From a bacterium (GTDB lineage Bacteria; Patescibacteriota; Microgenomatia; Levybacterales; UBA12049), in contig JAJYWL010000016.1 of NCBI GenBank assembly GCA_021791545.1, positions 9,533-73,532 of the forward strand: DNA of 64,000 nt. Direction: 5' to 3'. The translations under genes were made by a program, and so were the position numbers. The notes beneath the pieces are model-generated. The model was given only the letters and a program-made list of their open reading frames with translations. It did not search any database and had not been told where the DNA came from. Of the stretch, positions 4,888-63,400 are shown one piece after another. How positions within the stretch are numbered: position 1 is the first letter of the stretch; each line of letters opens with the position of its first letter.

Positions 4888-6282
4888 TTAATGGATGTAT
4901 TTTCTAAACAAGCCGCTTCTAAAAGTAGGGTCTGCGTATTTTCCAATGTAATTTGAAAAACTTTTAATACCAGCTCTTATCTTTGGAGCAACGTATCCTA
5001 CGCTTACTCTTGTTAAATAAAATCTTTCTATAGTCTTTTTATTTTTATGTATTACATTATAAATAGGAACCAAACCCAAAATACCCTTAAGCCTACTTTT
5101 CTTTCCGCTTTTTTGCCAAGTCTTAAAGTATTGATAAGCTGCAATTGCCCAAAGCTGAGGATCATTTTTCCCGGGCTTCATTGTTTGATTGTCTATTATA
5201 AAAAGTTCCGGGTAACTTCCCTCATAGGAAAATAGATAATTAGTTACTCTGAAACTTACTTCTTTTACATGATTTAGTACCATAACAAGTTCTTCATCCT
5301 CTATCTTTTTTGCCCACTCTAAATGTTTTACAGCACCTTTATGGATAAGAGCTTGTTCATGAGTCCAAAGAGTTCTTGCATGATAAGCATCTGGGACTCT
5401 TGCGGCATCTTTTGGGTCCAAAACTCTGTATCCAAGAGGCGTTTCCAACACCACTGAAGACTGAACAATTTCTTTAATCATCTTTGGAGATATATCTTGA
5501 GGATTTAAATAAAATAGAGCTTCCAGCCCGTCCGAACTTATCGCTTTTATTTCACCATTCCCGTCTATTGCTATCGGAAAATTCCCCATCTCCTTATCGA
5601 AAAGTAAGGGAATGCTTTTTCTCATTTCCTCTGCCCTTTTATAAAGATCTTCTGACATAAGTAAATGAGATGCAGCTCTTAGACCTGCCAAATTCTGAAT
5701 CTGCACAAGAGGATATTTAACGGGATATATAGGTTCTCCGTTAGTTCTGTCTAAAAGAATTGAGTCTTTCCAATATGTAACTTTTAAAGCATATTTTTGC
5801 GCATCGCTAAATCTTGGATCTTCTATAAATATATTATTTTCGTCCAAATGCATAAGTATATATTCTGCCGCCATTTTTATATTCTCTTTTTGAGCATCGG
5901 AAAGATGCCTGTTTCCTGTAAGTTTTTGATATTCTTCATGGGCGATAAGATAAAGTGCCGTCGTATCCGATGCATTAAATTTTGTAGTAAGACCCGGACT
6001 TTGAGAAAGCTCTACCCCATCGTTTAATTCGGTATCATATTCATGAAAAATTATTCCGGGTTGTTCACCTGTTCTTGGATCTTTTTTGACTCCCTGAATA
6101 GAAGCTGCAAACTTTAGCTTATTCTCAAGCATCATTGCATTTCCCGACAAAAGAGCAGACAAAACTCCGTCTCTCATAAATGTCCTGGGAAATCCGGGAA
6201 GACCCGCTTTATAGAGGATATAGTCACCATATTTAAAACTTAACTGGTCCAGTGGATCAATAGATAAATTAGCTTTTGCCAT
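4888..6282 (-). CDS. Putative (alpha/alpha)6-barrel glycoside hydrolase of the amylo-alpha-1,6-glucosidase (GDE_C-like) family
   Basis: 464 aa. The segment GLPGFPRTFMRDGVLSALLSG resembles the GDE_C signature WFGxWGRDTxISLxGL. No signal peptide. Confidence 0.4.
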   Translation of the reverse strand: MAKANLSIDPLDQLSFKYGDYILYKAGLPGFPRTFMRDGVLSALLSGNAMMLENKLKFAASIQGVKKDPRTGEQPGIIFHEYDTELNDGVELSQSPGLTTKFNASDTTALYLIAHEEYQKLTGNRHLSDAQKENIKMAAEYILMHLDENNIFIEDPRFSDAQKYALKVTYWKDSILLDRTNGEPIYPVKYPLVQIQNLAGLRAASHLLMSEDLYKRAEEMRKSIPLLFDKEMGNFPIAIDGNGEIKAISSDGLEALFYLNPQDISPKMIKEIVQSSVVLETPLGYRVLDPKDAARVPDAYHARTLWTHEQALIHKGAVKHLEWAKKIEDEELVMVLNHVKEVSFRVTNYLFSYEGSYPELFIIDNQTMKPGKNDPQLWAIAAYQYFKTWQKSGKKSRLKGILGLVPIYNVIHKNKKTIERFYLTRVSVGYVAPKIRAGIKSFSNYIGKYADPTFRSGLFRKYIH

Positions 6283-24508: not shown

Positions 24509-25696
24509 TCACATCAACCATTTTTTCTTAAGCTCTTTAAAGTTTCCTTCGAGAATGGATTTTCTTATGTCCTTAGTAAGATTGACAAGGAAATGAACGT
24601 TATGAAGACTTATCAAATTGTATGAAAGAAGTTCTTTTGCCCTGAATAGGTGGTGAATGTATCCTCTTGTAAAATTCTGACAGGTATAACAACTGCAATT
24701 AGGATCCAAAGGTTTCATATCTTTTACAAACTGAGGCTTATCAATGTCAGTTCTGAACCTATTCTTCATATTTCCCGATGGAGGGGATATAAAGAAAAAG
24801 CCTGTTCTTCCAATTCTTGTAGGAATAACACAATCGAAGGTATCCACTCCTCTTTCTACGCCTTCAAATAAATCATCTACTTCTCCAATTCCAAGCAGAT
24901 GTCTTGGTTTTTCCGAAGTTACAACATCTGTAGTCCAGTCAACAACTTCATAAAGATTTGTCTTTGAAAGATGAGCTCCTCCGAGAGCAATTGCGTCGAA
25001 ATTCTCGTCTACAAACCTTGCGGACTCTTCTCTTAAATCTCTGAATGGTCCTCCGTGAGTTACACCGTATAGGAGCTGGTCTTTCCTTTTATGAGCGTTT
25101 TTGCTTCTTATCTCCCATCTATTTGTCATCTCAAGACTCTTTTTAGTTTCTTCATAATCATACTTTGGAGATTCCAAATCGTCAAAAGAAACGATTAAAT
25201 CTGCCCCAATTTTCTCCTGTATATCTATTGAACTTTCAGGAGTAAGTTTATGAGTTGAACCGTCTAAATGTGACTGAAAAGTTACTCCCTCTTCGGTTAT
25301 CTTATTGAGTCTTGGTTTTGGATCATCTGTATTTCTTTCCTTTGGATCGTCCCTTAAAAACTTTACTCCTCCACCTTCTTTTCCTACTCCCAATGAGAAT
25401 ACCTGAAACCCACCTGAATCTGTCATGGTTGGTCCATTCCAAGACATAAACTTGGACAATCCTCCAAACTTTTTAATTAGATCTTCTCCGGGTCTTAAAT
25501 GAAGATGATAAGTATTGGCAAGAACAACCTCTGCCCCCATTTCCCTTAATTGTTTAGGGTCTACTGCTTTTACAGTTCCCTGTGTTCCTACAGGAACAAA
25601 AATGGGTGTTTCAATATCTCCGTTAGGAGTTGAAATAATACCTGCTCTTGCTTTTGTCTTTTTATCTTTTTGAAGTATTTTGTAGGAGGGTTTCAT
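24509..25696 (-). CDS. tgt: Queuine tRNA-ribosyltransferase
   Basis: LGIGEVDD...DTFDCVIPTR and the zinc site CSCYTCQNFTRGYIHHL. Confidence 0.85.
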   Translation of the reverse strand: MKPSYKILQKDKKTKARAGIISTPNGDIETPIFVPVGTQGTVKAVDPKQLREMGAEVVLANTYHLHLRPGEDLIKKFGGLSKFMSWNGPTMTDSGGFQVFSLGVGKEGGGVKFLRDDPKERNTDDPKPRLNKITEEGVTFQSHLDGSTHKLTPESSIDIQEKIGADLIVSFDDLESPKYDYEETKKSLEMTNRWEIRSKNAHKRKDQLLYGVTHGGPFRDLREESARFVDENFDAIALGGAHLSKTNLYEVVDWTTDVVTSEKPRHLLGIGEVDDLFEGVERGVDTFDCVIPTRIGRTGFFFISPPSGNMKNRFRTDIDKPQFVKDMKPLDPNCSCYTCQNFTRGYIHHLFRAKELLSYNLISLHNVHFLVNLTKDIRKSILEGNFKELKKKWLM

Positions 25697-27069
25697 TAGT
25701 TTTGAAGATTTTTTACCTGTTCTTTAAATTGATTTCCCCTGTCTTTATAGTTTTTGAACATATCAAATGACGCACAGGCTGGAGAAAGAAGAACTACATC
25801 ACCCGATACTGCTAGCTTTGAAGCGGCAAGCACTATTTGTTCCATGTTTTCTGCTCCCTCAATAGAGAGGAGTTTTACATTATGTTTTTCAATTTCCTCT
25901 TTTATCTTTTCCCACTCTATTCCTATTCCAATTATTGCTTTAATATTTTCTGCTTTTGAAATAATATCTCCAAGTTCCTCAAAGTCACTCCCTTTACTTG
26001 ATCCTCCCAGAATAATAATCTCGGGATTTTTGAAAGCTTTTATTGCGGCAATGGCAGTCTCGGGGGTTGTTGAGAATGAATCGTCATAATATCTGACACC
26101 ATTTACAGTTCCCACCAATTCAAGCCTATGTTCGAGTCCCTTAAATGTCTTTAATACTTCCTCTATATTCTCTATAGAGACTCCGGAAAGATAGGCCGCT
26201 AAACTTGCCGCACAGACATTTTCATAGTTATGTTCTCCCGGCAAAAGTATTTCTTTTGTATCTATTACCTTTTTCTCTCTTCCATCTACTCTTATCCAGA
26301 TAGCACCTTCCCTTACAAAAGAACCGTCTCCCATTACTTCCCTTTCTCTACTTGTATGTAAAACTTTACCGTCCGTATGAATGTCGGATTCGTTTGTTGC
26401 AGGATAGTCTCTATTTAAAATTGCAAAATCATCAGTAGTTTGAAATCTTAAAATGTTTCTCTTGGCATTAACATATTCTTCGGTTGTACCGTGATAGTTG
26501 AGATGCTCGCTTGTTACCATGAGCATTACTGCAATATGAGGACTTTTTGTAAGGTCCAAAAGCTGAAAACTGGAAAGTTCCAGAACAACTTTAGACTGAT
26601 CACTTAATTTATTCAAAAATTCAAAAGGAGGCACTCCTATATTCCCTCCTAAGTATGCATCAAACCCTTGTTTTTTAAGCATTTCCAAAATTAAAGTGGA
26701 AGTTGTTCCTTTTCCCTTTGTTCCGGTCACTCCTATAATTTCAGATGGACATAAATCAAAAAATATCTTTGTCTGAGATGTTATTTTCTCTGATTCTGTA
26801 AACTTTTGAAGAAGGTTTAATTGCACTCCCGGACTTCTAACGACAAGGTCAAAATATTTAAGATCATCAAGATAATCTTTGCCAAAAATAAACTTAATAG
26901 GTAGGTTTTCGACCTCTTTTATAAGCTCTATTTCTTTTTCTTCTCTTTCATCTAATACGGTAACATCCGCTCCCTTCTCCACCAAAAACTTTACAGAAGA
27001 AACACCTTCTATTCCAAGACCTACAACCGCTACTTTTTTGTTTTTGAAATCCATTGAGGAATTATCCAT
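25696..27069 (-). CDS. murD: UDP-N-acetylmuramoylalanine--D-glutamate ligase
   Basis: KKVAVVGLGIEGVS Rossmann N-terminus and the Mur ligase P-loop IGVTGTKGKGTTS. The start is set at MDNSSMDF (27069) because the ORF-track extension overlaps tRNA-Met. Confidence 0.8.
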   Translation of the reverse strand: MDNSSMDFKNKKVAVVGLGIEGVSSVKFLVEKGADVTVLDEREEKEIELIKEVENLPIKFIFGKDYLDDLKYFDLVVRSPGVQLNLLQKFTESEKITSQTKIFFDLCPSEIIGVTGTKGKGTTSTLILEMLKKQGFDAYLGGNIGVPPFEFLNKLSDQSKVVLELSSFQLLDLTKSPHIAVMLMVTSEHLNYHGTTEEYVNAKRNILRFQTTDDFAILNRDYPATNESDIHTDGKVLHTSREREVMGDGSFVREGAIWIRVDGREKKVIDTKEILLPGEHNYENVCAASLAAYLSGVSIENIEEVLKTFKGLEHRLELVGTVNGVRYYDDSFSTTPETAIAAIKAFKNPEIIILGGSSKGSDFEELGDIISKAENIKAIIGIGIEWEKIKEEIEKHNVKLLSIEGAENMEQIVLAASKLAVSGDVVLLSPACASFDMFKNYKDRGNQFKEQVKNLQN

Positions 27070-27079
27070 AAAAGAAAAG

Positions 27080-27153
27080 TACCAGGGGTGAGATTTGAAC
27101 TCACGACCGCAGGGATATGAATCCTGTGCTCTAACCAACTGAGCTACCCTGGC
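27080..27153 (-). tRNA. tRNA-Met(CAT). An elongator or Ile2-type identity cannot be decided.
   Basis: The reverse complement is GCCAGGGTAGCTCAGTTGGTTAGAGCACAGGATTCATATCCCTGCGGTCGTGAGTTCAAATCTCACCCCTGGTA. The anticodon loop is TTCATAT and the T-loop GTTCAAATC. Confidence 0.8.
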
Positions 27154-27337
27154 TTGTCCAACTATTTTAGCATCTGCTTCAATTTAATTCAATTTTGATG
27201 TATAATACTTAAACTCACGCGCGGGGTAGTGTACAGTGCACATGAGGCTCATAATCTCATAGGCTAGGCGCAACTCCTAGCCCCGCAACACATTTTTCAT
27301 TGACTTAGCCCCAATTGCCTTCTATAATTCCAACCCT

Positions 27338-28530: not shown

Positions 28531-29391
28531 ATGAAACCCATTAAACTTCACGATGCTCACGAGGAGTTCAAAAACTATTTGAAACAGAATAATAGGTCTA
28601 CTTCAACAGTCATTGCCTACGGCAAAGACATTGAACAATTGGTAGGCTTTCTTCAGGAACTCGAAAGAAATCACGTACATGAAGTAACAAAAGAAGATAT
28701 AGAAGCATTCCTGGCCAGAATGAGTAAGGAAGGATACACTCCAAAGTCGATTTCAAGAAAAATTAACTCAACAAGAACTTTTTACAGATTCCTAAAAATA
28801 AACGAATATATTACGGATGACCCTTCTCTACTGGTCTCTCACCCTAAATATCAGTTAGCACCACCCAGAATACTTACTCCTACGGAATATAGAGCCTTAA
28901 GAGATGCTGCTCACAACGATCCGAGAATGTATGCAATCATAGAGCTACTTCTACAAACAGGAATAAGAATAGGAGAACTCGCAGCACTTAAGCTTTCAGA
29001 CGTACAAAAAGACAATTTACACATAGCTCCATTTGAAAAACACGAAGAAAGAACGGTTCCTCTTAACAAAAGAGCAAAAGAAGCACTTGATAGATATATG
29101 GAAGTAAGACCAAAAGTATCAGACGACCATCTTTTCGTAACAAAATCTGGAAAACCTTTCCTTATAAGAAACATTAGAACGGCAATTGAAAGATACTTTA
29201 GACTTGCTGAAATAAAAGACGCAAAAGTAAATGACCTAAGACACACATTTGTAGCACACCATTTAAGACACGGCGTTTCATTGGTTCTTCTTTCCAAAGT
29301 ACTCGGGCATAAAAGACTTTCTACAACGGAAAGATATCTTCAGTTTGTCTCTGATAGAGGCAAGGAATCAACTTCTTTAACGGAGCTTTAA
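28531..29391 (+). CDS. Tyrosine site-specific recombinase (XerC/XerD-like)
   Basis: Xer-length protein of 286 aa with an N-terminal SAM-like domain. Catalytic motifs TGIRIGEL, LRHTFVAHHLRHG and GHKRLSTTERYLQ supply the R..HxxR..Y residues. Confidence 0.8.
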   Translation: MKPIKLHDAHEEFKNYLKQNNRSTSTVIAYGKDIEQLVGFLQELERNHVHEVTKEDIEAFLARMSKEGYTPKSISRKINSTRTFYRFLKINEYITDDPSLLVSHPKYQLAPPRILTPTEYRALRDAAHNDPRMYAIIELLLQTGIRIGELAALKLSDVQKDNLHIAPFEKHEERTVPLNKRAKEALDRYMEVRPKVSDDHLFVTKSGKPFLIRNIRTAIERYFRLAEIKDAKVNDLRHTFVAHHLRHGVSLVLLSKVLGHKRLSTTERYLQFVSDRGKESTSLTEL

Positions 29392-29402
29392 GCTACAAAA
29401 TG

Positions 29403-29474
29403 TGCGTCCACTTGGGTTCGAACCAAGGACATCTACTTTATAAGAGTAGCGCTCTACCACTGAGCTATGGACGC
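29403..29474 (-). tRNA. tRNA-Ile(TAT)
   Basis: The reverse complement is GCGTCCATAGCTCAGTGGTAGAGCGCTACTCTTATAAAGTAGATGTCCTTGGTTCGAACCCAAGTGGACGCA. The anticodon stem is CTACT/AGTAG with loop CTTATAA, giving anticodon UAU. Confidence 0.75.
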
Positions 29475-29514
29475 GTAAAAAGTATTATAGCAGTAAATTA
29501 GTATTCTTCAAGAA

Positions 29515-31905
29515 TTAAAGTCTTGCTCTTGTGGCTATCTCACCTTCCAAAGACCTTACTTCTTTTCCGTACTTTAGTCTTGAAAGTTCTTTAACGAGCT
29601 CTGCGACTCGAGGATTCATTAGTGCTTTTTCCTTTGTCATATCTTTAGTAGTGTCCATTGAAAAAGGCGTCATAGGCTCATTTCCTACGATAGTCTTCAC
29701 GTAAGCGTTAAATACGTCTATATTTATTAGATCAGCCTCGGAGAACGTAGGCTGGAACTCATGTTGGAGATAATTTGCATCGGTTACACCAACTCTAAAT
29801 GAAGCCAAAGTTCCTACGTTTCCAAATATGGCGTTTTTTACCTCTTCATCCATCTGTCCTATAAACTGATTCGCGACGATAAGATTGAGTCTATATTTTC
29901 TTGCCTCGGAAAGTATCTGGGCAAAATCCGGAGTTGCAAAGTTTTGGAACTCGTCTACATAAAGATAAAAGTCTTTTCTTTGATCTTGGGGCATGTCTTG
30001 TCTACTCATAGCAGCAACCAAAAGCTTAGGAACTAAAACCAAACCCAAGAAGCTTGCATTCTCCTCCCCTATCTTTCCCTTAGAAAGATTTACGAGAAGA
30101 ATTTTTTGTTCATCCATTACTTTTCTGAAATCAAATGCAGAATGAGATTGCCCAATGATATTTCTCATCATCTTGTTGGTGACGAACCTTCCAAACTTTG
30201 AAACTATATAATCGAGTGTTTCCGACTTATGGAAGTCTGATGTCTGAGCTATCTGATCTGTCCAGTATCTTCTAACGATAGGGTCCTGAACCTTAGGCAA
30301 AAGCTCTTGGACAAAAGAAGCATCTGTTAAAGCCCTTACTACTTCTATGAACGTGCTTCCGGGCTCAGACATTACTGTTAACATTGCGTTTCTTATTGCG
30401 TGTTCAAACCTTGGACCTATGATACCTGTCTTATTAGGATCATAAAGTTTGTACATGAGTCCAACGATTGAAGAAACTATGTAATGTTTTTCTTCTTCGG
30501 TTTGAGCCTCAATCATGTTAAGACCCATTGGTCTTTCGGTATCCGAAGGGTCAAAAAGTATTACATCTTCTGCCCTTTGAGGAGGAATTAACTGAAGTAT
30601 ATCTTCGATCAAATCTCCATGAGGATCGATTACTCCTATTCCCTTCCCGTTATTTATATCCTGGATGATCATCTGTTTCAAAAGTTCTGATTTTCCTACA
30701 CCTGTTTTTCCAATTATGTACATATGTCTTCTTCTATCATCGTCTGCCATATATACAGGTCTTTCCAAGCCCCTATATACGCTTTTACCCAGGTATAGAC
30801 CTTCGCTAGGGATTTGAGCCGGAGCGGGAGCTCTTTTTGAAGTGAGCCAGAAAATATGAGGAGTTGAAACACTTTTATTTGGGAAATGGAAAATCGTAGC
30901 TAATTCTTCACTTGTTAAAACTGAACCTACTCCTCTCATGGGAAGATAGCGATAAACAAAGTCTGTAATAAAACCTCCCTTAAATCTCATGCTCTCTTTT
31001 GTTAATTGATTAGCACCTGAAAATTGCGAGAAACTTGAAACGATATTCTCAAGATGAGCTTCGGCAGCTTCTTTTGTACTTGAAGATACAACGATTCTAA
31101 TGAAGGTGTTAAAGCCGGGCTTCCCTATTTTTCCCTCAACCGCCTCAAGTTCTTTGGCATCTACCGAATATTTGGCTGTTTCCGGATTTGCCTCACTTTT
31201 TTTAGTATTTGAAATAAACTTTCTTCCCTTTTTACTCCAGGAAGAATTAGCACCCGAAATCAATATTTGTATTGCCGCTCCCTCCCCCGGACTCATCTTT
31301 GCAAGAACGGATGTTATTGAAGACATTGGATCTACTGCAAAATCCTTATAGACCTTGATAGGTTTGAAATTTGAATCTTTCAACTTAAGAGAGGCAAAAG
31401 CTACTCTTCCCGTATCGGAAAAGATGTTATATTCATTTCCCAAGATATAACCTTCTTTTGAATCTTTTTCGTCTACGACTCTTATCTCCGCGTCCGGATA
31501 AGCTCCGTTTATCTGTTTTTCTACAAAATCCCTATATTTGTTCGGGGTATTTACATAAAAACGGATATCTCCCGGCATACCTACAATTTCAAAAGAAAGG
31601 TGTGGAGGAAGTTTTAAGAAAGAAAACATTCCGCTTCCTCCTTTTATAGAAGCAAAGCTTGCAAAAAGCTGTTCTGCGGTATCTATTTTTACCTCATTAT
31701 CCCTCGGAACACTTATCTGTAAAAGGGTGGAATCCAATGACTGTCTTTCCCTATCCCTGTTTCTATACCAAATAGAAAATACATAACCAAGGCCAATAAA
31801 GATTACTGCCAAGAAAGCCACGACAAGAGTGACAACAATAATTGCAAAAAACAATGCGTTCAATGCTGCCAACGGATCTACCATAAATGACGATGATGTA
31901 TTCAT
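29515..31905 (-). CDS. Membrane-anchored P-loop ATPase of the VirD4/TraG/TraD coupling-protein (HerA-FtsK) class, with a novel roughly 380-aa N-terminal domain
   Basis: N-terminal transmembrane helix, Walker A YIIGKTGVGKSELL, and a Walker B/TraM-recognition-like segment FYLYVDEFQNFATPDFAQILSEARKYRLNLIVANQFIGQM. The region before the ATPase has no recognisable motif. Confidence 0.6.
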   Translation of the reverse strand: MNTSSSFMVDPLAALNALFFAIIVVTLVVAFLAVIFIGLGYVFSIWYRNRDRERQSLDSTLLQISVPRDNEVKIDTAEQLFASFASIKGGSGMFSFLKLPPHLSFEIVGMPGDIRFYVNTPNKYRDFVEKQINGAYPDAEIRVVDEKDSKEGYILGNEYNIFSDTGRVAFASLKLKDSNFKPIKVYKDFAVDPMSSITSVLAKMSPGEGAAIQILISGANSSWSKKGRKFISNTKKSEANPETAKYSVDAKELEAVEGKIGKPGFNTFIRIVVSSSTKEAAEAHLENIVSSFSQFSGANQLTKESMRFKGGFITDFVYRYLPMRGVGSVLTSEELATIFHFPNKSVSTPHIFWLTSKRAPAPAQIPSEGLYLGKSVYRGLERPVYMADDDRRRHMYIIGKTGVGKSELLKQMIIQDINNGKGIGVIDPHGDLIEDILQLIPPQRAEDVILFDPSDTERPMGLNMIEAQTEEEKHYIVSSIVGLMYKLYDPNKTGIIGPRFEHAIRNAMLTVMSEPGSTFIEVVRALTDASFVQELLPKVQDPIVRRYWTDQIAQTSDFHKSETLDYIVSKFGRFVTNKMMRNIIGQSHSAFDFRKVMDEQKILLVNLSKGKIGEENASFLGLVLVPKLLVAAMSRQDMPQDQRKDFYLYVDEFQNFATPDFAQILSEARKYRLNLIVANQFIGQMDEEVKNAIFGNVGTLASFRVGVTDANYLQHEFQPTFSEADLINIDVFNAYVKTIVGNEPMTPFSMDTTKDMTKEKALMNPRVAELVKELSRLKYGKEVRSLEGEIATRARL

Positions 31906-31907
31906 AT

Positions 31908-32306
31908 TTATTTTATAAGGCCCAAAAGCCTATCCAAAACCTTTATTCTTAAAACCGCAAACCAAGTAGAAGCAAGTGATTTATCTCCTTTTGCGAGCTC
32001 CTTAGCCTCACTTTCCTCCTTTATTATATCCTCTCTTGTCATCCCATTAAGGTTTGGCATGGTAACAGATGGAGCATGTTCGACCAAGCCTTCATGAGTA
32101 TCATCAAGACTGGCTCTTGTCTCGTTTACTTTTATTATTTCCTTTAATTCATCCTTTATCTGAGGCTCTGTTTCCTCCGTAGTTGAAGGTCTTACTAAAG
32201 GTTCGGGTGAAGTTCTTGTCTCTAAAGGAGCACCCTCTTTACTTATTGAAGGTACTGAAACTTGATTATTAGCATTTTGTGTATCATTTTGAGCTTGGGC
32301 ATCCAT
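31908..32306 (-). CDS. Hypothetical acidic protein, co-transcribed with the T4CP-like ATPase
   Basis: 132 aa, Glu/Asp/Thr-rich, with a 2-nt gap to the downstream ATPase gene. Confidence 0.45.
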   Translation of the reverse strand: MDAQAQNDTQNANNQVSVPSISKEGAPLETRTSPEPLVRPSTTEETEPQIKDELKEIIKVNETRASLDDTHEGLVEHAPSVTMPNLNGMTREDIIKEESEAKELAKGDKSLASTWFAVLRIKVLDRLLGLIK

Positions 32307-32375
32307 AGGTTAATAATAACATTATTGACTTTAAAGGACAATTAAATTTAGATTACAAAAACCTAACAAAGTAAC

Positions 32376-33461
32376 TTAAGCGCAGGCTTCTCCACCGTCT
32401 TCGGCAAATTCTTCTTTTGTTAAATGACATGATGGACATTCGTTTCCGACGGGACCGGTTGCATGATAATCGCATTTGGGACAGACAAACCATTCGCTTT
32501 CCGACTCTCCTTTTGCTCCAGAACCTAAATTAGGTCTCAAACCCCTAAAAATATTAGGACTTTGTAAGCCTCCACCCAAACCACAACTTCCCTTAGTAGG
32601 AGGTGGTGCTTGATTATATCTCGATTCTTTCATTGCTTCTGAAAGCTCTAGTTCTTTATGATCAAGATAGACTACGTTTTCGTTTTCTTCTCCCTCAAGT
32701 CTTCTTCTGAGCTCAATTGCCATATTTTCTATGGCGTTTCTTGCTATTCCTCCTCTTCCCTCTCTTACTAATCTTGGAAATTCTTCAATTGCTCTTTTAA
32801 GTTTTCTAATTGATGCTTCAAATATTTCTCTACTCTTTGCCGACTTAATCTCAAAATTTCCGTGTATAAACTCATTTACTTTATCCTCATCTACATCTAT
32901 AACTCTTGGATTTCTTAAATAACCTTCGGCATCATCGTACTCTTCCCCAGTTAAGGATCTACTTGCTTTATTAAAATCTGCGATATTAGGATCCTCAAGT
33001 CTGATTGCAGTCATTTTTAACTTTTCTCCATCTAATTTTCCTGTAAAACCAAATCCGTAATCACCGTATCCAAGCTCTTTTGGACCAGTAGGACTAAACC
33101 AAACAACTGTTCCGGTTGGATTTTCTATCAACTGTCTTCCGAGGCTTCTCATTCCCAAATATTCTGCTTCTTCTCTTGAAGTATCGAGTCCTTGTTCTTC
33201 TCTTTCCCTAATTGCTCTCTTTGACTTTAGAGCCATTGATTCACCGCTTACCGGATCGACAATTTCTCCAGCTCTAAATCCAAGTTCATATTGAAAATCA
33301 GATACTTCAAACCTATATTCTCCAAGATATGAAACCATATCATCTATGATTTGCTGATCGCTTGCCCATTCATAAAACTCGACATTGAACGCCTGGGGGA
33401 GATTTTCTCCTCTCTTATTTCCTATAACTTGATATTCTCTTTCCATAAAAAAACTCCTCAC
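32376..33461 (-). CDS. Hypothetical protein with a C-terminal zinc ribbon
   Basis: 361-aa ORF. The C-terminus carries CPKCDYH...CPSCH after a Gly-rich linker. It is first in the apparent three-gene unit. Confidence 0.45.
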   Translation of the reverse strand: MRSFFMEREYQVIGNKRGENLPQAFNVEFYEWASDQQIIDDMVSYLGEYRFEVSDFQYELGFRAGEIVDPVSGESMALKSKRAIREREEQGLDTSREEAEYLGMRSLGRQLIENPTGTVVWFSPTGPKELGYGDYGFGFTGKLDGEKLKMTAIRLEDPNIADFNKASRSLTGEEYDDAEGYLRNPRVIDVDEDKVNEFIHGNFEIKSAKSREIFEASIRKLKRAIEEFPRLVREGRGGIARNAIENMAIELRRRLEGEENENVVYLDHKELELSEAMKESRYNQAPPPTKGSCGLGGGLQSPNIFRGLRPNLGSGAKGESESEWFVCPKCDYHATGPVGNECPSCHLTKEEFAEDGGEACA

Positions 33462-33569
33462 TTCCGAGGAGTTGTATTACAAAAATACACTTCTGCTCGG
33501 AAGATTTCCAACGGGGCTCTGACTTTACAGTTGCGGCACAGTATCGGAATTACACCGAATTCACCCGAT

Positions 33570-34106
33570 TTATCTAGACCAAATGTTTTCTTTTTTCTTT
33601 TCCTTAAAGTTTATATACCTTGCAAAAGTAAACAAAAGGTCTGATAGCCTATTAATATATACCAGAATCTCTTCGTTGACAACATCATGTTCTGAAAGTC
33701 CTACAATTCTTCTCTCTGCTCTTCTTGCTATCGTCCTTGACAGATGTAAAAGTGAGCCTGTCTCTCCTCCCCCCGGAAGAATGAAGTTTTCAAGTTCCGG
33801 AAGCTTTTTCGTGAGGTTATCTATAATTTTTTCAAATTCTTTTACTCTTTCTAGGAAATATTTTTTCTCTTCTTTTTTAAGAGACGGTCTTGCAATAATT
33901 GCCCCTATTTCAAAGATATCTTTTTGTATTTTCAGAAGCTCTTCTTTTATCTTTTTGTCTTTAATTCTTGCGACAACAACACCCAAAGAACTATTGAGTT
34001 CATCCAGATTTCCGCAAGTTTCGATACGGGGGTCTGTTTTTGAAACCGTCATTCCTCCGAAAAGCGAAGTATTTCCTTTGTCTCCAAATCTTGTATATAC
34101 GCTCAT
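33570..34106 (-). CDS. pduO: ATP:cob(I)alamin adenosyltransferase, PduO/MMAB type
   Basis: MSVYTRFGDKGNTSLFGG...DPRIETCGNLDELNS matches the PduO-type adenosyltransferase N-terminal signature. Confidence 0.8.
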   Translation of the reverse strand: MSVYTRFGDKGNTSLFGGMTVSKTDPRIETCGNLDELNSSLGVVVARIKDKKIKEELLKIQKDIFEIGAIIARPSLKKEEKKYFLERVKEFEKIIDNLTKKLPELENFILPGGGETGSLLHLSRTIARRAERRIVGLSEHDVVNEEILVYINRLSDLLFTFARYINFKEKKKENIWSR

Positions 34107-49937: not shown

Positions 49938-51719
49938 ATGGCTGAAACGAACTTAAATTTTGCCAAAATCGTTGCCAACCCCAATGTCTATTCCTGGTCT
50001 CAAGCATATAACGCAGGAAAGCTATTTTCAGTACTTTCGCTTGAGAAATTTGATCAGACAGGCGAAGAAAAGGATTTCTTAGGTGTCTTAGGAAAAGAAA
50101 TCTTTAACACTCTTGAACAGGAATTCTTTACTCTGGAATCAAAAAATCTCGAATCAATAAAAAGTGCCATAAAAACTACTGCGGAAAAAATCCCGGACGG
50201 AGTTAATTGTTCTTTTGTAATAGGATATATTGCCGGAAACATCCTCTACATATTCATCTTGGGAAACGGAAAAGTAGATATCAAAAGAAACGATAAATTG
50301 GGAAACCTCCTCTCCTCCAAAGACAGCAGCAAAGAAAACATAAAAGCTTCCTCAGGATATCTTGAAGAAGGAGATTATATTTTCCTTGAAACGGACCAAT
50401 TCGCAAATATAATTTCTGCGGAAACCCTATCCTCCCACCTTGAGAACAAAAAACCCGAAGAGGTATCGGAAGAGATTGCTCCAATACTTCATGAAAGAGA
50501 AGAAGCTGCGGCAGCAGCCATAATCTTGGAATATAAAGGAGAAGAAAAACCTTCAATCCTTACCGCTCCCATCGAAGAACTGGAAAAACAAGCAGAAAAC
50601 CCCTTCGGAATAGAAAGTTCTCAAGAAAAATCTTCCTCAAAATTCTTGGATTCTGCTAAAACTTTTGCCCTGGGTCTTATATCTAAAATTAAGACTCCAT
50701 CTATTAAGGGCTTCAGTTTCTCGGGCGGCAGAAAAATAATTTTAATAGCTGCAGTCATAATTGTCGCAGTTTTTGTATTCAGCATCTATAAAGGACTTCA
50801 AAAACAACAAAACGATAAATATGAAGCGACTTTCCAGGCTTTTTATCCTCAGGCTCAGAAAAAATATGACGAAGGACAAAGTTTAATGGATCTAAACCAA
50901 AGTTTGGCAAAAGACAGTTTCCAGCAGGCGCAAAAAATCCTCAACGACAATAAAGACAAGTTCCCCGCAAAATCTTCTCAGGAAAAACAGATTCAGGATC
51001 TTCTTTCAAAAGTAAACTCTGCCTTAGGCGGAAGCGGAACTAGCAATCAATCAAATCAGGTAACCCCTGAAGAAGTAGATTCAAGCGTAAGTCCTATTCT
51101 GGCAACAGAGATCAAATATAACTCTTCTTCATACTTTACACAGGACGATCAAAATATATACTTCATAGATTCTGCAGGAATTGAATCTGTAAGTAAACAA
51201 GGAGGAACCAAAAAGAAAATAATAGACTCAAGTGAACTTCCGAAGAATGTAGGCGGCCTTTCTGTATACTACGGCAATTTCTATGTAGTAGATAAAGACG
51301 CAAACCAAATAACCAAATTTATTGCGGCAACCGACGGCTTTGGAAAAACCGACTACCTTAAAGGGACAAACAACATTTCAAACTCGATTTCGATAGCAAT
51401 CGACAGCGACTTATGGCTTCTCCAAAAATCCGGCTCACTTTTACAATTTACCAAAGGAAATAATGATAACTTAAATGTATCCGGGCTTTCCACTCCTCTT
51501 TCATCCCCAACCAGAGTATCTACGACACTAGGAGAAAATAATGTATATATATTGGACAATGGAAATTCAAGAATGGTAGTCTTGGATAAAAAAGGAAACT
51601 TTGTTAATCAGTATCAAGCAGAAATATTAAAACAAGCTAAAGACTTTGAAGTATCGGAAGCAAGTAAAAGAGCTTTTGTTCTCTCCGGAGGAAAAGTCTA
51701 CCAGATAAACCTTAAGTAA
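49938..51719 (+). CDS. Hypothetical bitopic protein with a cytoplasmic N-domain, one transmembrane helix and an extracytoplasmic repeat (beta-propeller-like) C-domain
   Basis: Transmembrane helix KIILIAAVIIVAVFVFSIY at mid-protein. The C-terminal repeats are NIYFIDSAG, FYVVDKDANQITKF and NVYILDNGNSRMVVLDKKGNF. Confidence 0.45.
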   Translation: MAETNLNFAKIVANPNVYSWSQAYNAGKLFSVLSLEKFDQTGEEKDFLGVLGKEIFNTLEQEFFTLESKNLESIKSAIKTTAEKIPDGVNCSFVIGYIAGNILYIFILGNGKVDIKRNDKLGNLLSSKDSSKENIKASSGYLEEGDYIFLETDQFANIISAETLSSHLENKKPEEVSEEIAPILHEREEAAAAAIILEYKGEEKPSILTAPIEELEKQAENPFGIESSQEKSSSKFLDSAKTFALGLISKIKTPSIKGFSFSGGRKIILIAAVIIVAVFVFSIYKGLQKQQNDKYEATFQAFYPQAQKKYDEGQSLMDLNQSLAKDSFQQAQKILNDNKDKFPAKSSQEKQIQDLLSKVNSALGGSGTSNQSNQVTPEEVDSSVSPILATEIKYNSSSYFTQDDQNIYFIDSAGIESVSKQGGTKKKIIDSSELPKNVGGLSVYYGNFYVVDKDANQITKFIAATDGFGKTDYLKGTNNISNSISIAIDSDLWLLQKSGSLLQFTKGNNDNLNVSGLSTPLSSPTRVSTTLGENNVYILDNGNSRMVVLDKKGNFVNQYQAEILKQAKDFEVSEASKRAFVLSGGKVYQINLK

Positions 51720-58350: not shown

Positions 58351-60441
58351 ATGAAATTTTCTGTCCGCCTGGCCCTTGTTTTAGGAACGATACTATTTCT
58401 TTTCCCCTTTTTCAAAGTAAATACTTTTGCTCAAATTTCAAACACACCTACCCCTGCAGTTCAAAATTATACTACTCCTGACACAAACTCCAATGTTCCC
58501 AAGAATATGCACACCCTAACCCAGAGTCTTGTAATAGAAATACTATCTTCGTTTGTTTGCCAACTGGGGGGAATTGATCCTATGAACAAAAATCAGGAAT
58601 GTTTAGGGGTTGATCCAAACACAGGCAAAATTGGTTTTGTCAAAAATGGAGGAGGCCTAGTCGGAGTCGCACAAAAAATGATTGTTAGTACTTATTCCCT
58701 ACCTATTCATACCGGTGATTATATTGCCTATGTAGGACGAAATTTCGGAATAACCAAACCCACCTATGCTGCCGATCCAAATTCGAGCTTAGGCTTACAA
58801 AGCCTTTCACCCTTAATTAATCTTTGGGTAGCTTTTAGAAATATTGTTTATCTTCTTTTTGTTGTAATCTTCACAGTTATAGGTTTAGCAATAATGCTGA
58901 GGGTGCGAATAGACCCAAGAACCGTAATGACAATTCAAAACCAAATACCTAAACTTATAATAGGCATCGTTCTTGTTACATTCTCTTTTGCATTATCCGG
59001 ATTTCTTGTAGACCTTATGTATGTTTCCTCTTACCTTGGAATAGGAGTTGTGGCTTCAGCAGACAAATCCGGGAATATTTCTCCAAACATAGGCGTGCAA
59101 TTGATGACCGCCACAAACCCCATACATGCTGCAGATATAGCAACAATGGGAGGAAAATATGATGGAAACAACCCAGCAAAATCATCAAATGATTTAGGTT
59201 TGCAAACCGGTCTTATCGGAATCGCTGTGCTACCTGCTAATGCTGCTGGTCATTTCTTGGGACCACTTTTTGCAAATCCAGTAGGATCTCTACTTATGGC
59301 TTTTGTTATGGGAGTACTGGGACACACTGCGGGACAAAGCATAGGAACAATCGTAGGGGCACTTTTAGGAGCGGGCGTAGCAATCTTAGGAATCCTTGGG
59401 GCGCCAGTCACGGGGGGAGCAAGTTTAATAGTAACCGGAGCTCTTGTAGGAGGAACCTTAGGAGCAGCTATGGGAACTACGGTAGGGGGTATTTGGGGAG
59501 CAACAGACCCTGCGAGTGCAGCAGGAGGCTTTATATCGATAATTGCTTATCTTATTATCCTTATAGCAATTCTATATTCTCTTTATAAACTTTGGTTCCA
59601 GTTAATAATCGCCTACATAAGTATCTTTATAGATGTTATTTTCTCACCTTTCTGGATAGCTGCTGGATTAATACCTGGAAGTAAAATAGGATTTGGCTCA
59701 TGGCTGAGAGACATTATTTCAAACCTTTCTGTTTTCCCCATCACATTATTAATGTTTCTCCTCTCAAAAGTAATTATAGATGCTATGGGACCATGCCAAG
59801 GAGGTACTGTTGCGGGTTTTGCATGTACTAATCCTCAGAATTTTTTTGTTGCTCCATTAATCGGCAATCCTTCTTTCCCCAATGAAATTGTTGCAATAAT
59901 AGGCCTTGGCTTCATACTCTCCACACCAGAAGTAGTTAAAATAGTAAAGACAGCTCTTAAAGCACCTCAAACTCCTCTCGGTGGACCTGCCTCTGCAATA
60001 GGGTTTGCTGCTAAGATACCTGCTGCCTTTGGAAAAGGTACCTGGGGAAGTATAATGAAAAGAGATCAATATGGTCGTCCTTTAGGAGGAGGAGCATTCC
60101 TTTGGGACGAAGGAAAAGGGATGATAAGAAGAGGTGCGGTAAGAGTAGTTCCTGGTTACAGAACGGTAGAGAACATAAGACAACGTATAGAGGACAGGAA
60201 TGCAAACAGAGGGGCAGCACGAGTTGCACCAGCAGCAGGAGGCGGAACACCACCTCCACCTCCTCCAGCAGCAGGAGGAGCACCAGCAGCAGGAGGCGGA
60301 ACACCACCTCCACCTCCTCCAGCAGCAGGAGGAGCAGCACCAGCAGGAGCAGGCTGGAGACAAGAAGGACGACAAAGAGCAGATAGAATAATTAACAGAA
60401 TGACACCCAGGGTAAATAATCCCTTTAGAAGAAGACCCTAA
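58351..60441 (+). CDS. Polytopic membrane protein, VirB6/TrbL-like architecture, with a C-terminal Pro/Gly-rich repeat tail
   Basis: Signal peptide, a roughly 100-aa extracytoplasmic region and at least six Gly-rich transmembrane helices. The C-terminal tail carries two copies of AAGGGTPPPPPPAAGG. Confidence 0.45.
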   Translation: MKFSVRLALVLGTILFLFPFFKVNTFAQISNTPTPAVQNYTTPDTNSNVPKNMHTLTQSLVIEILSSFVCQLGGIDPMNKNQECLGVDPNTGKIGFVKNGGGLVGVAQKMIVSTYSLPIHTGDYIAYVGRNFGITKPTYAADPNSSLGLQSLSPLINLWVAFRNIVYLLFVVIFTVIGLAIMLRVRIDPRTVMTIQNQIPKLIIGIVLVTFSFALSGFLVDLMYVSSYLGIGVVASADKSGNISPNIGVQLMTATNPIHAADIATMGGKYDGNNPAKSSNDLGLQTGLIGIAVLPANAAGHFLGPLFANPVGSLLMAFVMGVLGHTAGQSIGTIVGALLGAGVAILGILGAPVTGGASLIVTGALVGGTLGAAMGTTVGGIWGATDPASAAGGFISIIAYLIILIAILYSLYKLWFQLIIAYISIFIDVIFSPFWIAAGLIPGSKIGFGSWLRDIISNLSVFPITLLMFLLSKVIIDAMGPCQGGTVAGFACTNPQNFFVAPLIGNPSFPNEIVAIIGLGFILSTPEVVKIVKTALKAPQTPLGGPASAIGFAAKIPAAFGKGTWGSIMKRDQYGRPLGGGAFLWDEGKGMIRRGAVRVVPGYRTVENIRQRIEDRNANRGAARVAPAAGGGTPPPPPPAAGGAPAAGGGTPPPPPPAAGGAAPAGAGWRQEGRQRADRIINRMTPRVNNPFRRRP
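60226..60345 (+). repeat. Tandem direct repeat, 54-bp unit in about 2.2 copies, encoding the Pro-rich tail
   Basis: gcaccagcagcaggaggcggaacaccacctccacctcctccagcagcaggagga recurs at 60226 and 60280. Confidence 0.7.
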
Positions 60442-60485: not shown

Positions 60486-63400
60486 TTAACTTACCTTATA
60501 TATCTGGCCAATATTTCCCAAAAGAGCTTTAAGTGCTTCCGCAAGTCCCCCTCCTACTGCTCCCCCGCTTGATTGAAGGAATAAACCATAAGTAGTGGTA
60601 TGAGTTTCTCTCCTCATTTTTTGTATTTCTTGTTCTGAATAATAATGCTTCGTGCGCAAGAAATCCCAAATAGCCTCCATTTGTACCATATTAAATCTGG
60701 GTTGATCACTGGTTACATTTCTATGAGATTCTATTTCTGCCTCTACAATATAGGCAAAGGCATCTTTCCAAAGAAGTTCTCTTATATCAGACTCCTGAAT
60801 TCTTGCAACATCGATATCAAACCCAGGACTAAGTTCTTTTCCAGTCCTAGGATCTCTTGTCCCTTCGATTCTCCATATTTTTGGCTGATAACTGGCTGGA
60901 GGTTCAAATAGAGTCTTTGAATCCTTTTCTTCATATCTATCTTTGATTTTTCTTAATATTTCAGCTCCAAAAAGATTTGCAACAATAGGAAGATCTATTG
61001 CATCGTCTACTGTTTTCCCATCAGAGCCTGCGTGTTTTTCCCAGGTCCTTATTGTCTTACCGTAATCTGTTCCTCCCCAAGTCGAAAGCCAATATCTTAC
61101 TGCTTTTTCAACCCCATCTACCATTTTATTTGCTTTCTCATAATCTATAATTGCCCTTCCTGTACCGGGTTCAAAGGTAAGAAAGTCTTGAAAATTAAGT
61201 TGATTATGATCAACTAGAAACTCGTGAAGGTGAAATCCTGAAGCAACATGATTCGAAGCAAAATTACCCATTATATGTTGCTGAAATCTTATACCCCTGT
61301 CTTTTCCATACAAATCCCTAATAGAAGTGTTAAGATTGCTTAAATCATTCCCTTCTCCCCCCTGAATTGCTTCCAGAAGAGTTCTTCCCTCCGTGTCTCT
61401 TACTCCTTCAAAAAAATTAAGACCTAATCTTTTAAGCCCAAGTACGTTAAAAATATTTCCATAAGAAGCATTTCTTTTATCAGCCATCTGCCTTATTCTG
61501 TATTCCTGAGAATTTATAATCTTTGTCCATGCATCGAAACCTACTGCTCCTGTATCATTCTTTGCAGCTAAGCCAGTCCATTTAGTCATAGAAAAAGCCC
61601 AGTTTTCTGCATATTGAGCTTCTCTTCTGTCTAGCCCCGTTTGCTCCATTATTGCCCTTACCATCCTCTCTCTTACTTGGGTGATTACAGCCTCGTCCTT
61701 ATTTGGCCCTGGTCCTGTAAATACATTTATATATTCCATAAAGTCTTTTGGGGGATTTCCGTTTTCATCCAAAATGAGCTTACCATCTCTAAACCATTTA
61801 CTCGAGTCGTAATGGCGTCCTGGACCTTTTACTCCTGTAAAAGTTTTTTCTACTTCCTCATCCTCGTCCCATCCAGTATATTTTTCTGAAAAAAGAGATG
61901 AATCTGGAAATATTTTTTGTAGAGAATCGTAATCGTAGATGTAATAATATGCCATTAAAGCTTTTCTTACTGCCTGGCCAACATCGGAATTCTTGTCGAC
62001 CCTGTCTTTTATTTCCTCTCCTTGATGTAATTCTAATCCAGGAACCTTATCCGCATCCCTCATCGATGGCATGCTTAGAATAAATTCCATAAAGTTAGAC
62101 CTGGTAAACATGTTTGTTCCATATATCTTTGATATTGTTTCTAAAAGCTTATGTTCATCAAACTGAATGTTCACATATTCTACATGGTTATTCCTTGATG
62201 TATTAAATAGAAATGCCTCTGTTAACAATTGTTGTCTTAATTTTTCATAGTCTTTATTTTTATGATAAGTCGCCTCTGATTGAGCTATCATCGGCTTCTT
62301 TTTATCAATATTCCCATGCTTATCTATATTTGGAACAATCTTTTTTACATTTCTTTTTTCAGTAAAATAACTTCCAGTAAGAACCATTTCTTGTAGACTT
62401 ATCTGACTCCATCTTGATTTAACCGTTATCTGACTAAAGAAATCAACAGTAGAATTAGGAGAAAATTCATGTATTTCTATCATTCTTTTTCTTACCCATG
62501 CCATAAAATGAGCCTTATTAACTTTTCCCTCTCTACTCAAAAGCTCATTTTCTCCCCCAGTCTTCCACTCCTCGTTTTCTGAATTCATTATGAGAGCACA
62601 TAGGTCTTCCAAAGATGCAGGAATGTCGGGAAGAGCACCCTCAAGGCTATAGTAATGGGAAATTACCCTTTGAGAAAATGGAGGCTTTCCTCCAAAAACT
62701 TCACTTTTAATCCCATTAAGATCCCGATCTTTTCTTAATCTCTCCAATCTCTTTACGATTGGTTCATAGTCTCTTTCATAAGCATCTTTTGAAATCGCTC
62801 CTGTTGTTTCAAGTGCCTTGGCGAAAAAGATAAGATTATCTACCTCTGTGTCTACCTCATTTGTATAAGATGTTGCACTATCAATAACGTCCATGCTCTC
62901 TCTATAATTTTGTTGGAAAGTTTTAATACCCTCTTCTGCTTCAGGTTGATCCTCAGAAGTTCCTGTTCCTGATTTTCTAGTAGCCCTGACTATATCCTCC
63001 GTAGTGCTCGTGGCTTCTCTTGCCATTTCGTCATTTTGTCTTTTTAATTCTTGGTATTCCGGATCATCTTCATCATCATGGTCATCATTTTCCCCACCAT
63101 CTTCATCGTCGGGATTGTCGTCGGGTGTCTCATCGTCCTCATTATTGTCATCATTTTCTTCATCTGGAGAGGATGACTTAACATCATCCTTTTCCTCAAT
63201 TGCTTCAGCTTGCGAAGAATTATCAAATTGATCTCTTTTTTTTCTTAAAATTTCCATTAACTCAGAAAGGTTTGATTCCTTAATTGTTTCTTTATCAACT
63301 CCATTTTCAAGAAGGATTCTTTCTAAGTTGCTCGTCATAGCAAATGGAACCCCTCCGCTCCCAATCTTATCTAAAAGACTTCTTGCTTCGGCTGTTATGT

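Follow-up and report, generated by a model that had tools for sequence, protein, structure and literature searches.

A window of 64,000 nt from contig JAJYWL010000016.1 (GCA_021791545.1), belonging to a member of the Levybacterales, was analysed, and all coordinates given here refer to this stretch. On its minus strand the window encodes a P-loop ATPase of 796 aa together with a small upstream open reading frame (ORF) of 132 aa. These two genes constitute the conserved unit, which is a vertically inherited core chromosomal module of the Patescibacteria, a phylum for which the name candidate phyla radiation (CPR) is also in use. When a structural model of its N-terminal half is taken into account, the ATPase is a hybrid protein comprising a membrane anchor, an N-terminal domain of predicted VirB4 type and an ATPase domain of coupling-protein type. 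An earlier reading of the DNA letters (the original prediction) had placed three ORFs, a tRNA-Ile gene, a Xer recombinase and the Walker motifs at this locus, and all were found at the positions given there. The features of the module are the following:

29515..31905, minus strand: gene of the ATPase, similar to DUF8128 proteins and type IV coupling proteins (T4CPs), 796-aa ORF, the core of the module
31768..31872, minus strand: predicted N-terminal membrane anchor, approximately residues 12–46 (Kyte-Doolittle)
30751..31758, minus strand: DUF8128 domain, residues 50–385, with a predicted fold like that of the VirB4/TrwK N-terminal domain
30877-30891, minus strand: FHFPN motif in the DUF8128 domain, holding H340 and P342
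29518..30750, minus strand: predicted coupling-protein-type P-loop ATPase domain, residues 386–796 (Pfam, hhalign and PDB profiles)
30688-30711, minus strand: Walker A motif GKTGVGKS, residues 399–406
29938-29961, minus strand: Walker B motif YVDEFQNF (DEFQNF), residues 649–656
29851-29901, minus strand: RKYRLNLIVANQFIGQM, residues 669–685 of the ATPase
31908..32306, minus strand: gene of the small partner, 132 aa, family F1, separated by 2 nt from the ATPase start

On an identical contig, gene callers place the start of the ATPase at Met8, which results in a protein of 789 aa. Promoter-like sites numbered 19 compared to 22.8 expected from shuffling, which is no excess.

The C-terminal half of the protein is assigned to the coupling-protein type of P-loop ATPases by sequence profiles. 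Residues 389–711 matched TrwB_AAD_bind (PF10412; 34.5 bits, cut-off 20.5), DUF87 (29.5 bits, cut-off 23.2) and TraG-D_C (PF12696; 25.7 bits, cut-off 22), all over the curated Pfam cut-offs and well beyond what chance would give, whereas FtsK_SpoIIIE (PF01580) covered only the P-loop and reached 14.6 bits, under its cut-off of 24. When the family profile was compared by hhalign to proteins of R388 (sequences from NC_028464), the alignment to TrwB spanned 270 columns, beginning at Walker A and continuing past Walker B, with a probability of 96.9 and an E-value of 1.3e-10, and that to TrwK/VirB4 was confined to the P-loop, with a probability of 6.9. DotL and TrwB were the best, and the sole significant, PDB sequence matches of the ATPase in a profile search; no VirB4 chain was among the PDB profile matches at E ≤ 1, and no VirB4-type Pfam match was obtained at E ≤ 0.1. 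The curated NCBIfam scores were missed by far (TraD, 54.6 vs 366; VirD4 CD1115, 43.3 vs 250; a further model, 37 vs 647). Residues invariant in the family alignment were E106, H340, P342, G399..K405, D651, E652, Q680 and Q684. The original prediction had called the protein a coupling-protein-type ATPase and had named profile searches of residues 430–796 as a check; the call is upheld by Pfam, by the alignment to TrwB and by the PDB profile matches, with coupling-protein models above and FtsK_SpoIIIE below the respective cut-offs.

Homology to the T4CPs TrwB (R388), TraD, VirD4 and DotL begins at Walker A of the ATPase domain, takes in Walker B and reaches the TraG-D_C region, and the T4CPs share an N-terminal membrane anchor with the window ATPase. 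Unlike in T4CPs, a predicted VirB4-like domain of approximately 330 aa separates the anchor from Walker A (residue 399), and there is one transmembrane (TM) segment where T4CPs usually have two. The window ATPase further differs from T4CPs in having no adjacent genes for a relaxase or a type IV secretion system (T4SS) and in being chromosomal, core and vertically inherited. The description of the ATPase as an orphan, with no VirB4, VirB11 or relaxase nearby, was borne out by Pfam, with which no T4SS genes were detected among the neighbouring genes or the window's large ORFs, and by tblastn searches of the 64 kb with TrwK/VirB4 and with the ATPase itself, which revealed neither a VirB4 nor a second copy of the ATPase. 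Nor were virB4 or relaxase genes found among the recurrent neighbour families of 83 related loci (80 loci were kept from at least 600 matches in species-representative genomes). With FtsK/SpoIIIE the window ATPase shares the same broad ATPase superfamily, a membrane anchor and, at this locus, a nearby Xer recombinase, but it is without the 4TM, alpha and gamma domains.

Kyte-Doolittle windows exceeding 1.6 were found in the ATPase only at starts 5–30, plus a single window at 616, and a TM segment was present within the first 110 aa in 75 of 79 family members. The hydrophobic segment is directly followed by a basic stretch (YRNRDRER), which suggests that the C-terminal side of the anchor, and with it the remainder of the protein, is cytoplasmic. 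The domain that follows had been described as novel; it is in fact already catalogued in Pfam as DUF8128 (PF26449.1), both for identical proteins and for all homologues listed, and what is new here is the resemblance of its predicted fold to the N-terminal domain of VirB4. A phmmer search with residues 50–385 against 1.84 billion cluster representatives returned 2,109 matches, in which the domain was always located at approximately residues 40–400 of proteins of approximately 780–1130 aa, or in fragments. An AlphaFold2 model of the domain, based on a 97-sequence alignment, had a predicted local distance difference test (pLDDT) score of 91.1 and a predicted template modelling (pTM) score of 0.87. 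When this model was used as a query in Foldseek, the best 14 matches were all TrwK chains, with E-values of 2e-8 to 1e-5, and the next matches were above 1e-3. Since a P-loop domain is absent from the query and TrwK was the only P-loop ATPase matched, the similarity points to the VirB4-specific N-terminal domain, and we infer that DUF8128 adopts a VirB4 N-terminal-domain-like fold.

In the R388 machine, the N-terminal domain of VirB4 contacts the membrane subunits. While the N-terminal domain of VirB4/TrwK from the R388 T4SS (PDB 7o42, 7o43, 8rtd) has a fold like that predicted for DUF8128, these proteins have no sequence similarity to the window ATPase beyond the P-loop, a sequence-level link between DUF8128 and VirB4 not being detectable by hhalign to TrwK, and the virB3, virB6 and virB8 neighbours of virB4 are absent around the window ATPase.

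The 132-aa partner is an acidic protein (isoelectric point 4.8; D+E 24 vs K+R 16) with no matches in Pfam, NCBIfam, PADLOC or PHROG and with neither a signal peptide nor a TM segment. Its tight pairing with the ATPase, noted originally from the 2-nt gap, was found to extend to related genomes, as a profile of its family (F1) matched in 23 loci and solely in the position directly upstream of the ATPase, in the same orientation, with the genes further upstream varying. In 70 of the 83 loci, an ORF of 80 aa or more was present on the ATPase strand, ending between -130 and +250 nt of the ATPase start. These small upstream ORFs split into class-specific families, with F1 found in Microgenomatia and Dojkabacteria, F2 in Parcubacteria-type loci (motif WLKLIPGVNKFFLEQEAKIK), F3 in Staskawiczbacteria-type loci and F4 in Saccharibacteria. 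In F1, the N-terminal two-thirds are acidic and of low complexity, and at the C-terminus a motif (..LP.t..e...g.....s..W(L/F)a....r..K) is conserved that ends in a basic helix containing an invariant-like Trp. The identity between F1 proteins is approximately 30% where that between the ATPases is approximately 80%, marking the partner as fast-evolving.

The original prediction had joined to these two genes a third, encoding a zinc-ribbon protein, in a three-gene unit. The features of this gene and its upstream region are:

32376-33461, minus strand: ORF of the zinc-ribbon protein, 361 aa; likely ATG start at 33446, resulting in 356 aa (32376..33446)
32427-32483, minus strand: zinc ribbon of the 361-aa ORF, CPKC (residue 327) and CPSC (residue 342)
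33452-33473, minus strand: hairpin between the riboswitch aptamer and the 356-aa gene, pairing GAGGAG; a T-run and the ATG at 33446 come next
33506..33579, minus strand: adenosylcobalamin (AdoCbl)-II riboswitch aptamer (Rfam RF01689), upstream of the 356-aa gene

The acidic 361-aa protein belongs to no Pfam family and has 175 homologues (35–52% identity), found only in the closest Levybacteria. The AdoCbl-II riboswitch (41.6 bits, gathering score 36.5) sits directly upstream of the 356-aa gene, beside genes for PduO and a class II (B12-dependent) ribonucleotide reductase (RNR), and the hairpin is predicted to sequester the Shine-Dalgarno-like GAGGAG that it pairs. The same riboswitch was found after the RNR or PduO gene in five relatives (L002, L003, L004, L007 and L010). 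Because of its narrow distribution and its own riboswitch by RNR/PduO, the gene is attributed to a cobalamin/RNR cluster; it is probably a separate gene under cobalamin-riboswitch control that lies outside the ATPase module, and the proposed three-gene unit was abandoned. For the same two reasons the 361-aa protein was rejected as a partner of the ATPase. The fold searches suggested at the outset ended differently for the two proteins: the N-terminal domain of the ATPase led to TrwK, whereas the model of the 361-aa protein had no PDB fold neighbour, and no PADLOC match was obtained for it either. The 356-aa zinc-ribbon protein is a candidate new cobalamin-related protein.

Downstream of the ATPase gene, two further features are found:

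29402..29474, minus strand: tRNA-Ile(UAU) (ARAGORN and Rfam), a conserved neighbour of the ATPase
28531..29391, plus strand: Xer-type tyrosine recombinase with Phage_integrase and SAM-like domains, convergent with the ATPase

Because a tRNA gene and a tyrosine recombinase here adjoin an ATPase resembling coupling proteins, a type common in conjugative elements, the locus had originally been read as possible integrated mobile DNA, either the remnant of an integrative or conjugative element or an island at the tRNA-Ile with the recombinase as its integrase. Mobile variants of the family do exist, such as the IMG/VR variant L093 with an integrase nearby and relatives on plasmids. The distribution of the gene contradicts such an origin for the window locus. 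Full-length homologues of the ATPase number in the thousands; the best 120 are all full-length, 75–100% identical and from Levybacteria and related metagenome-assembled genomes (MAGs), and few genes of the region are as conserved as the ATPase, which shows 75–83% identity across Levybacteria. In IMG/VR, by comparison, the family is scarce, with only 20 loci, a single one of them full-length. The at least 600 family matches in species-representative genomes span all CPR/Patescibacteria classes, and the 80 loci, with identities of 38–75% over the full length, cover Levy-, Curtiss-, Davies-, Woese-, Roizman-, Shapiro- and Dojkabacteria, WWE3 and Saccharibacteria as well as Berkel-, Magasanik-, Uhr-, Falkow-, Staskawicz- and Doudnabacteria. 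A neighbour-joining tree of 79 members grouped broadly by class and gave no sign of recent transfer.

The flanking genes are equally informative. In two other species, with ATPases 81% and 78% identical to that of the window, the gene order is identical, running from GAPDH, a kinase, DUF5667, NrdR, class II RNR, PduO, a variable protein and the small protein to the ATPase, and from there to tRNA-Ile, Xer (opposite strand), DivIC, MurD, TGT, TrpRS and FtsH. Xer and DivIC follow the ATPase in approximately 21 loci of Microgenomatia and Dojkabacteria, including loci where the ATPase identity is down to approximately 45%, with the position and strand of Xer unchanged in 21 loci, and of 19 related loci scanned, 18 have tRNA-Ile(UAU) as the next gene after the ATPase. 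The recombinase matched the XerC/XerD models with 172 bits and is 82–84% identical between species (L002, L003), which is comparable to RNR and NrdR and argues for a housekeeping recombinase rather than an island integrase. No direct repeats involving the tRNA (29402-29474) were found within 26–36 kb, so that the search proposed for copies of the tRNA-Ile 3' end came back empty, and there was no break in GC content, which at 0.37–0.39 equals that of the flanks, or in skew. With the direct-repeat search, the composition profile and the synteny of tRNA, Xer and DivIC, which is ancestral and shared with the RNR/PduO flank across many species and classes, all pointing the same way, and with no relaxase, VirB4 or nickase found, the island hypothesis was rejected and a mobile remnant is scarcely credible; a tRNA gene beside a recombinase is no evidence of an island at this locus.

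Gene-neighbourhood analysis across related genomes, proposed in the original prediction to establish co-occurrence and variable presence, showed that the 132-aa gene co-occurs with the ATPase, that the 361-aa gene does so only in the closest Levybacteria, and that the locus is syntenic in relatives. Among the outcomes that had been named as speaking against that prediction, a core-genome position and a partner gene lacking co-conservation were indeed observed, whereas coupling-protein models outscored FtsK and the 132-aa partner proved to be co-conserved.

The tRNA-Ile carries an unusual UAU anticodon and keeps its fixed position after the ATPase across Microgenomatia and Dojkabacteria. The neighbourhood of the ATPase in Parcubacteria-type loci (L048-L081) differs from the Xer/DivIC neighbourhood of Microgenomatia, as in 17 of them a conserved, uncharacterized same-strand ORF of approximately 213 aa comes after the ATPase, with DnaX as the next gene in 12.

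Outside the Patescibacteria, relatives of the ATPase domain only (28–33% identity, E-values down to 6e-65) are encoded on plasmids and chromids of Proteobacteria, Actinobacteria and haloarchaea, mostly on non-mobilisable replicons. Examples are a stand-alone Sulfitobacter protein of 395 aa and a Rhodococcus protein of 738 aa with a non-DUF8128 N-terminus. On Rhodococcus ruber pYYL1.1 (L085, 140351-143029) the gene for the 738-aa relative is followed by one for a small DUF5663 protein, and the ATPase clade is thus again paired with a small uncharacterized protein. The occurrence of ATPase-only relatives on plasmids amid transposases and recombinases, along with a match of the PADLOC mad8 model to residues 383–692 (E 2.4e-17) and weak matches of HerA profiles, would be consistent with an anti-phage defence ATPase, either HerA-like or similar to mad8 of the MADS system, acting with accessory proteins. 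The ATPase domain alone is matched, though, and it has housekeeping neighbours and no adjacent MADS or other defence genes; a family that is near-universal, syntenic, strongly conserved and probably essential is moreover the opposite of what defence islands contain, making a role in defence very improbable. A MADS system was specifically rejected, as the two upstream proteins had no PADLOC match and no other mad genes were found at the locus.

Homologues covering the full length of the protein, including the DUF8128 region, are encoded by phages, namely gp156 of Bacillus phage G (L086, 90859-93336) and gp27.4 of SPO1 (L087, 92636-95356). The window ATPase matched phrog_5156 of the PHROGs with an E-value of 3.5e-90, and hhalign to the phage homologues gave E-values of 3e-60 over 703 columns and 3e-29 over 726 columns. 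SPO1 gp27.4 overlaps the start of gp27.3, which is annotated 'replication initiation by nicking', the phage G ATPase adjoins gp155, a 'VirB-like' protein, and the IMG/VR variant L093 carries a C-terminal helix-turn-helix (HTH) DNA-binding domain, HTH_17. The SPO1 pair was previously grouped with orf200/201 of 0305phi8-36 as a relaxase and coupling ATPase forming a 'DNA translocation operon', which is dispensable for laboratory growth of 0305phi8-36 (Pathria et al. 2012; PMC3357382). The phage coupling ATPases (SPO1 gp27.4, 0305phi8-36 orf201 and phage G gp156; phrog_5156) are homologous to the window ATPase over the full length at 20–25% identity but have no TM anchor, whereas the CPR proteins are anchored, and the SPO1 ATPase adjoins a MobC-like nickase, whereas the CPR gene has no nickase nearby and is core. 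As relatives adjoin a nickase or carry an HTH fusion, DNA is the likely cargo of the wider family. The hybrid ATPase could be a surviving intermediate between VirB4 and T4CPs, shared with some Firmicutes phages only, and its layout bears on the divergence of VirB4 and coupling proteins.

In a recent survey of 3,035 Patescibacteria genomes, 2,918 were found to encode VirD4-type homologues, 5,713 in total, with only 148 of these T4CP-like genes near virB4, and VirB4 was reported in 2,417 genomes (Quinonero-Coronel et al. 2025; PMC12102498). These 'T4CP homologues' without linkage to virB4, together with Pfam DUF8128 (PF26449), represent the closest known family, and the window ATPase belongs to this catalogued but uncharacterized group of DUF8128/Patescibacteria T4CP-like proteins. 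In S. epibionticum, an essential T4SS was described whose gene cluster encodes no recognisable coupling or relaxase proteins (Wang et al. 2023; PMC10633639). Table S1 of the same study lists SEML1_0142, a core, Patescibacteria-enriched protein of 1019 aa, as essential in transposon sequencing (Tn-seq), and the 139-aa SEML1_0141, encoded 12 nt upstream, is also called essential; neither is discussed in the main text. In our set, a Saccharibacteria MAG locus (L062) encodes a DUF8128 member of 1027 aa with an F4 partner of 146 aa, and the genes around it correspond to SEML1_0138-0145 by annotation and size as well as in order and strand: YifB and a pair of small ORFs come first, then the ATPase, and after it a pair of minus-strand ORFs and GyrB. 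By synteny and the shared small-partner arrangement, SEML1_0141/0142 are probably the Saccharibacteria version of the two-gene module, which is likely essential given that this syntenic pair was called essential in Tn-seq. Replacement of FtsK as a function of the module was ruled out by the presence of a canonical essential FtsK (SEML1_0096) in S. epibionticum (PMC10633639) and by the sub-cut-off score of PF01580. Literature searches on DUF8128 and SEML1_0142 returned no report, and in the literature searched there was none of a VirB4 N-terminal-domain-like fold of DUF8128, of the small upstream ORF, of the phage relatives or of the link to SEML1_0141/0142. The present analysis adds the predicted fold, the hybrid nature of the protein, its conserved small partner, its phage relatives and its probable tie to an essential gene pair.

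By analogy with the families to which it is related, it is highly probable that the module is a core, membrane-anchored translocation ATPase module of these bacteria. The explanation towards which we lean overall is that of a core two-gene module in which a membrane-anchored translocation motor works with a small partner. The ATPase would assemble into a membrane ring and thread a macromolecule through it in an ATP-driven manner, like members of the FtsK/HerA/VirB4/VirD4 group, with the VirB4-like domain as a docking platform and the small partner as an adaptor or substrate that would engage through its C-terminal helix; DNA would be the likelier cargo. More tentatively, the setting that seems most likely is the chromosomal T4SS of Patescibacteria, which has no relaxase and would be encoded elsewhere in the genome; the motor may be its 'missing' second ATPase or its substrate receptor. 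That the ATPase and its small partner instead form a phylum-wide essential translocase of Patescibacteria working without the canonical T4SS, combining a VirB4-type docking domain and a coupling-protein-type engine in a new class of motor, seems unlikely.

Several observations weigh against the translocation module as outlined. Ring formation, cargo and partner binding are all drawn from family analogy, and the similarity to VirB4 is structural only, coming from a predicted model and not accompanied by a residue-level alignment. Homology between F1, F2, F3 and F4 was not detectable (hhalign probabilities <1%), and 'the partner' may stand for several unrelated proteins in different CPR classes. 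Neither a nickase nor a relaxase homologue was found in the window or the 83 loci (the best match to the SPO1 gp27.3 nickase had an E-value of 0.09), and the case for DNA as cargo is therefore weaker for the CPR members than for those of phages. Linkage of virB4 to the gene was seen in none of the loci examined, and T4CP-like genes occur in 96% of genomes compared to 80% for VirB4 (PMC12102498); given this wider spread, a T4SS-independent role fits at least as well. Finally, S. epibionticum encodes a second protein of similar architecture, SEML1_0293 (921 aa), which is non-essential (PMC10633639), and the choice of SEML1_0142 over it as the orthologue draws solely on synteny and the small-partner arrangement.

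A T4SS-independent translocase is indeed nearly as likely as the second ATPase of a T4SS. In its most explicit form, the protein would be a housekeeping DNA pump, a stand-alone anchored ring ATPase akin to FtsK or to TraB of Streptomyces that moves chromosomal or foreign DNA in division, segregation or uptake, with the small partner as a regulator. In every class the neighbours are genes of DNA metabolism or division (Xer, DivIC, RNR and NrdR in Microgenomatia, DnaX in Parcubacteria-type loci, GyrB and YifB in Saccharibacteria), which is consistent with such a role, as are the spread of the family beyond that of VirB4, the nickase paired with phage relatives and the HTH fusion of one variant. 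Arguments from neighbourhood are weak, however, in tiny genomes rich in informational genes, and a docking domain resembling that of VirB4 is suggestive of T4SS-type partners in the membrane. Since S. epibionticum has an essential canonical FtsK, the pump would not be an FtsK replacement, and since comEC is dispensable in the same organism (PMC10633639), DNA uptake by itself cannot account for an essential role. A DNA pump independent of a T4SS is on balance doubtful.

The cargo might also be protein. The partner, with its basic C-terminal tail, may recall the C-terminal signals of T4SS substrates. An export or assembly ATPase of VirB4-like kind, handling small fast-evolving proteins such as the partner either independently or within a T4SS pilus machinery, would account for the VirB4-like N-terminal domain and for the rapid evolution, acidity, disorder and basic C-terminal tail of the partner, and would agree with the lack of a relaxase anywhere near the gene and with the view that the Patescibacteria T4SS is non-conjugative. 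Yet by sequence the ATPase resembles T4CPs and not VirB4, neither a signal peptide nor a TM segment is present in the partner, and the upstream families show no relationship from one class to another, so that protein export is regarded as improbable and a translocation motor with DNA as the likelier cargo is preferred.

Much of bacterial diversity belongs to the Patescibacteria, whose phylum-specific core genes mostly lack a known function. The DUF8128 ATPase family is near-universal in the phylum, and its probable Saccharibacteria counterpart is, together with the partner, called essential in the only Tn-seq data set of that group. The hybrid layout leads to a hypothesis that can be addressed in a cultivable system, i.e. 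that the ATPase is either a DNA pump acting on its own or the missing second ATPase of an essential T4SS that has no relaxase.

Some additional observations were made. Public MAG records that contain the ATPase gene with syntenic neighbours (L005, L006, L009, L014, L029, L048 and others) are labelled 'uncultured Gammaproteobacteria', 'Bathyarchaeia', 'Limisphaerales' or 'Methylomirabilota', and these labels look unreliable. Four large ORFs of the window were without a Pfam match at E ≤ 1e-5, located at 60486-63785 (minus strand, 1099 aa), 58351-60441 (plus strand, 696 aa), 49938-51719 (plus strand, 593 aa) and 4888-6282 (minus strand, 464 aa). The MurD ORF (25696-27138, minus strand, TTG start) overruns a tRNA-Met gene at 27079-27153, and on the identical contig gene callers use a downstream start that results in a protein of 452 aa. 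Close to this normal tRNA-Met, and divergent from it, lies a tRNA-Met(CAU)-like gene of 70 nt (27220-27289, plus strand) with a shortened D-loop and a non-canonical T-loop (GGCGCAACUCC), which scored 37 bits to the Rfam tRNA model, was detected only on searching a short stretch, and is conserved in relatives.

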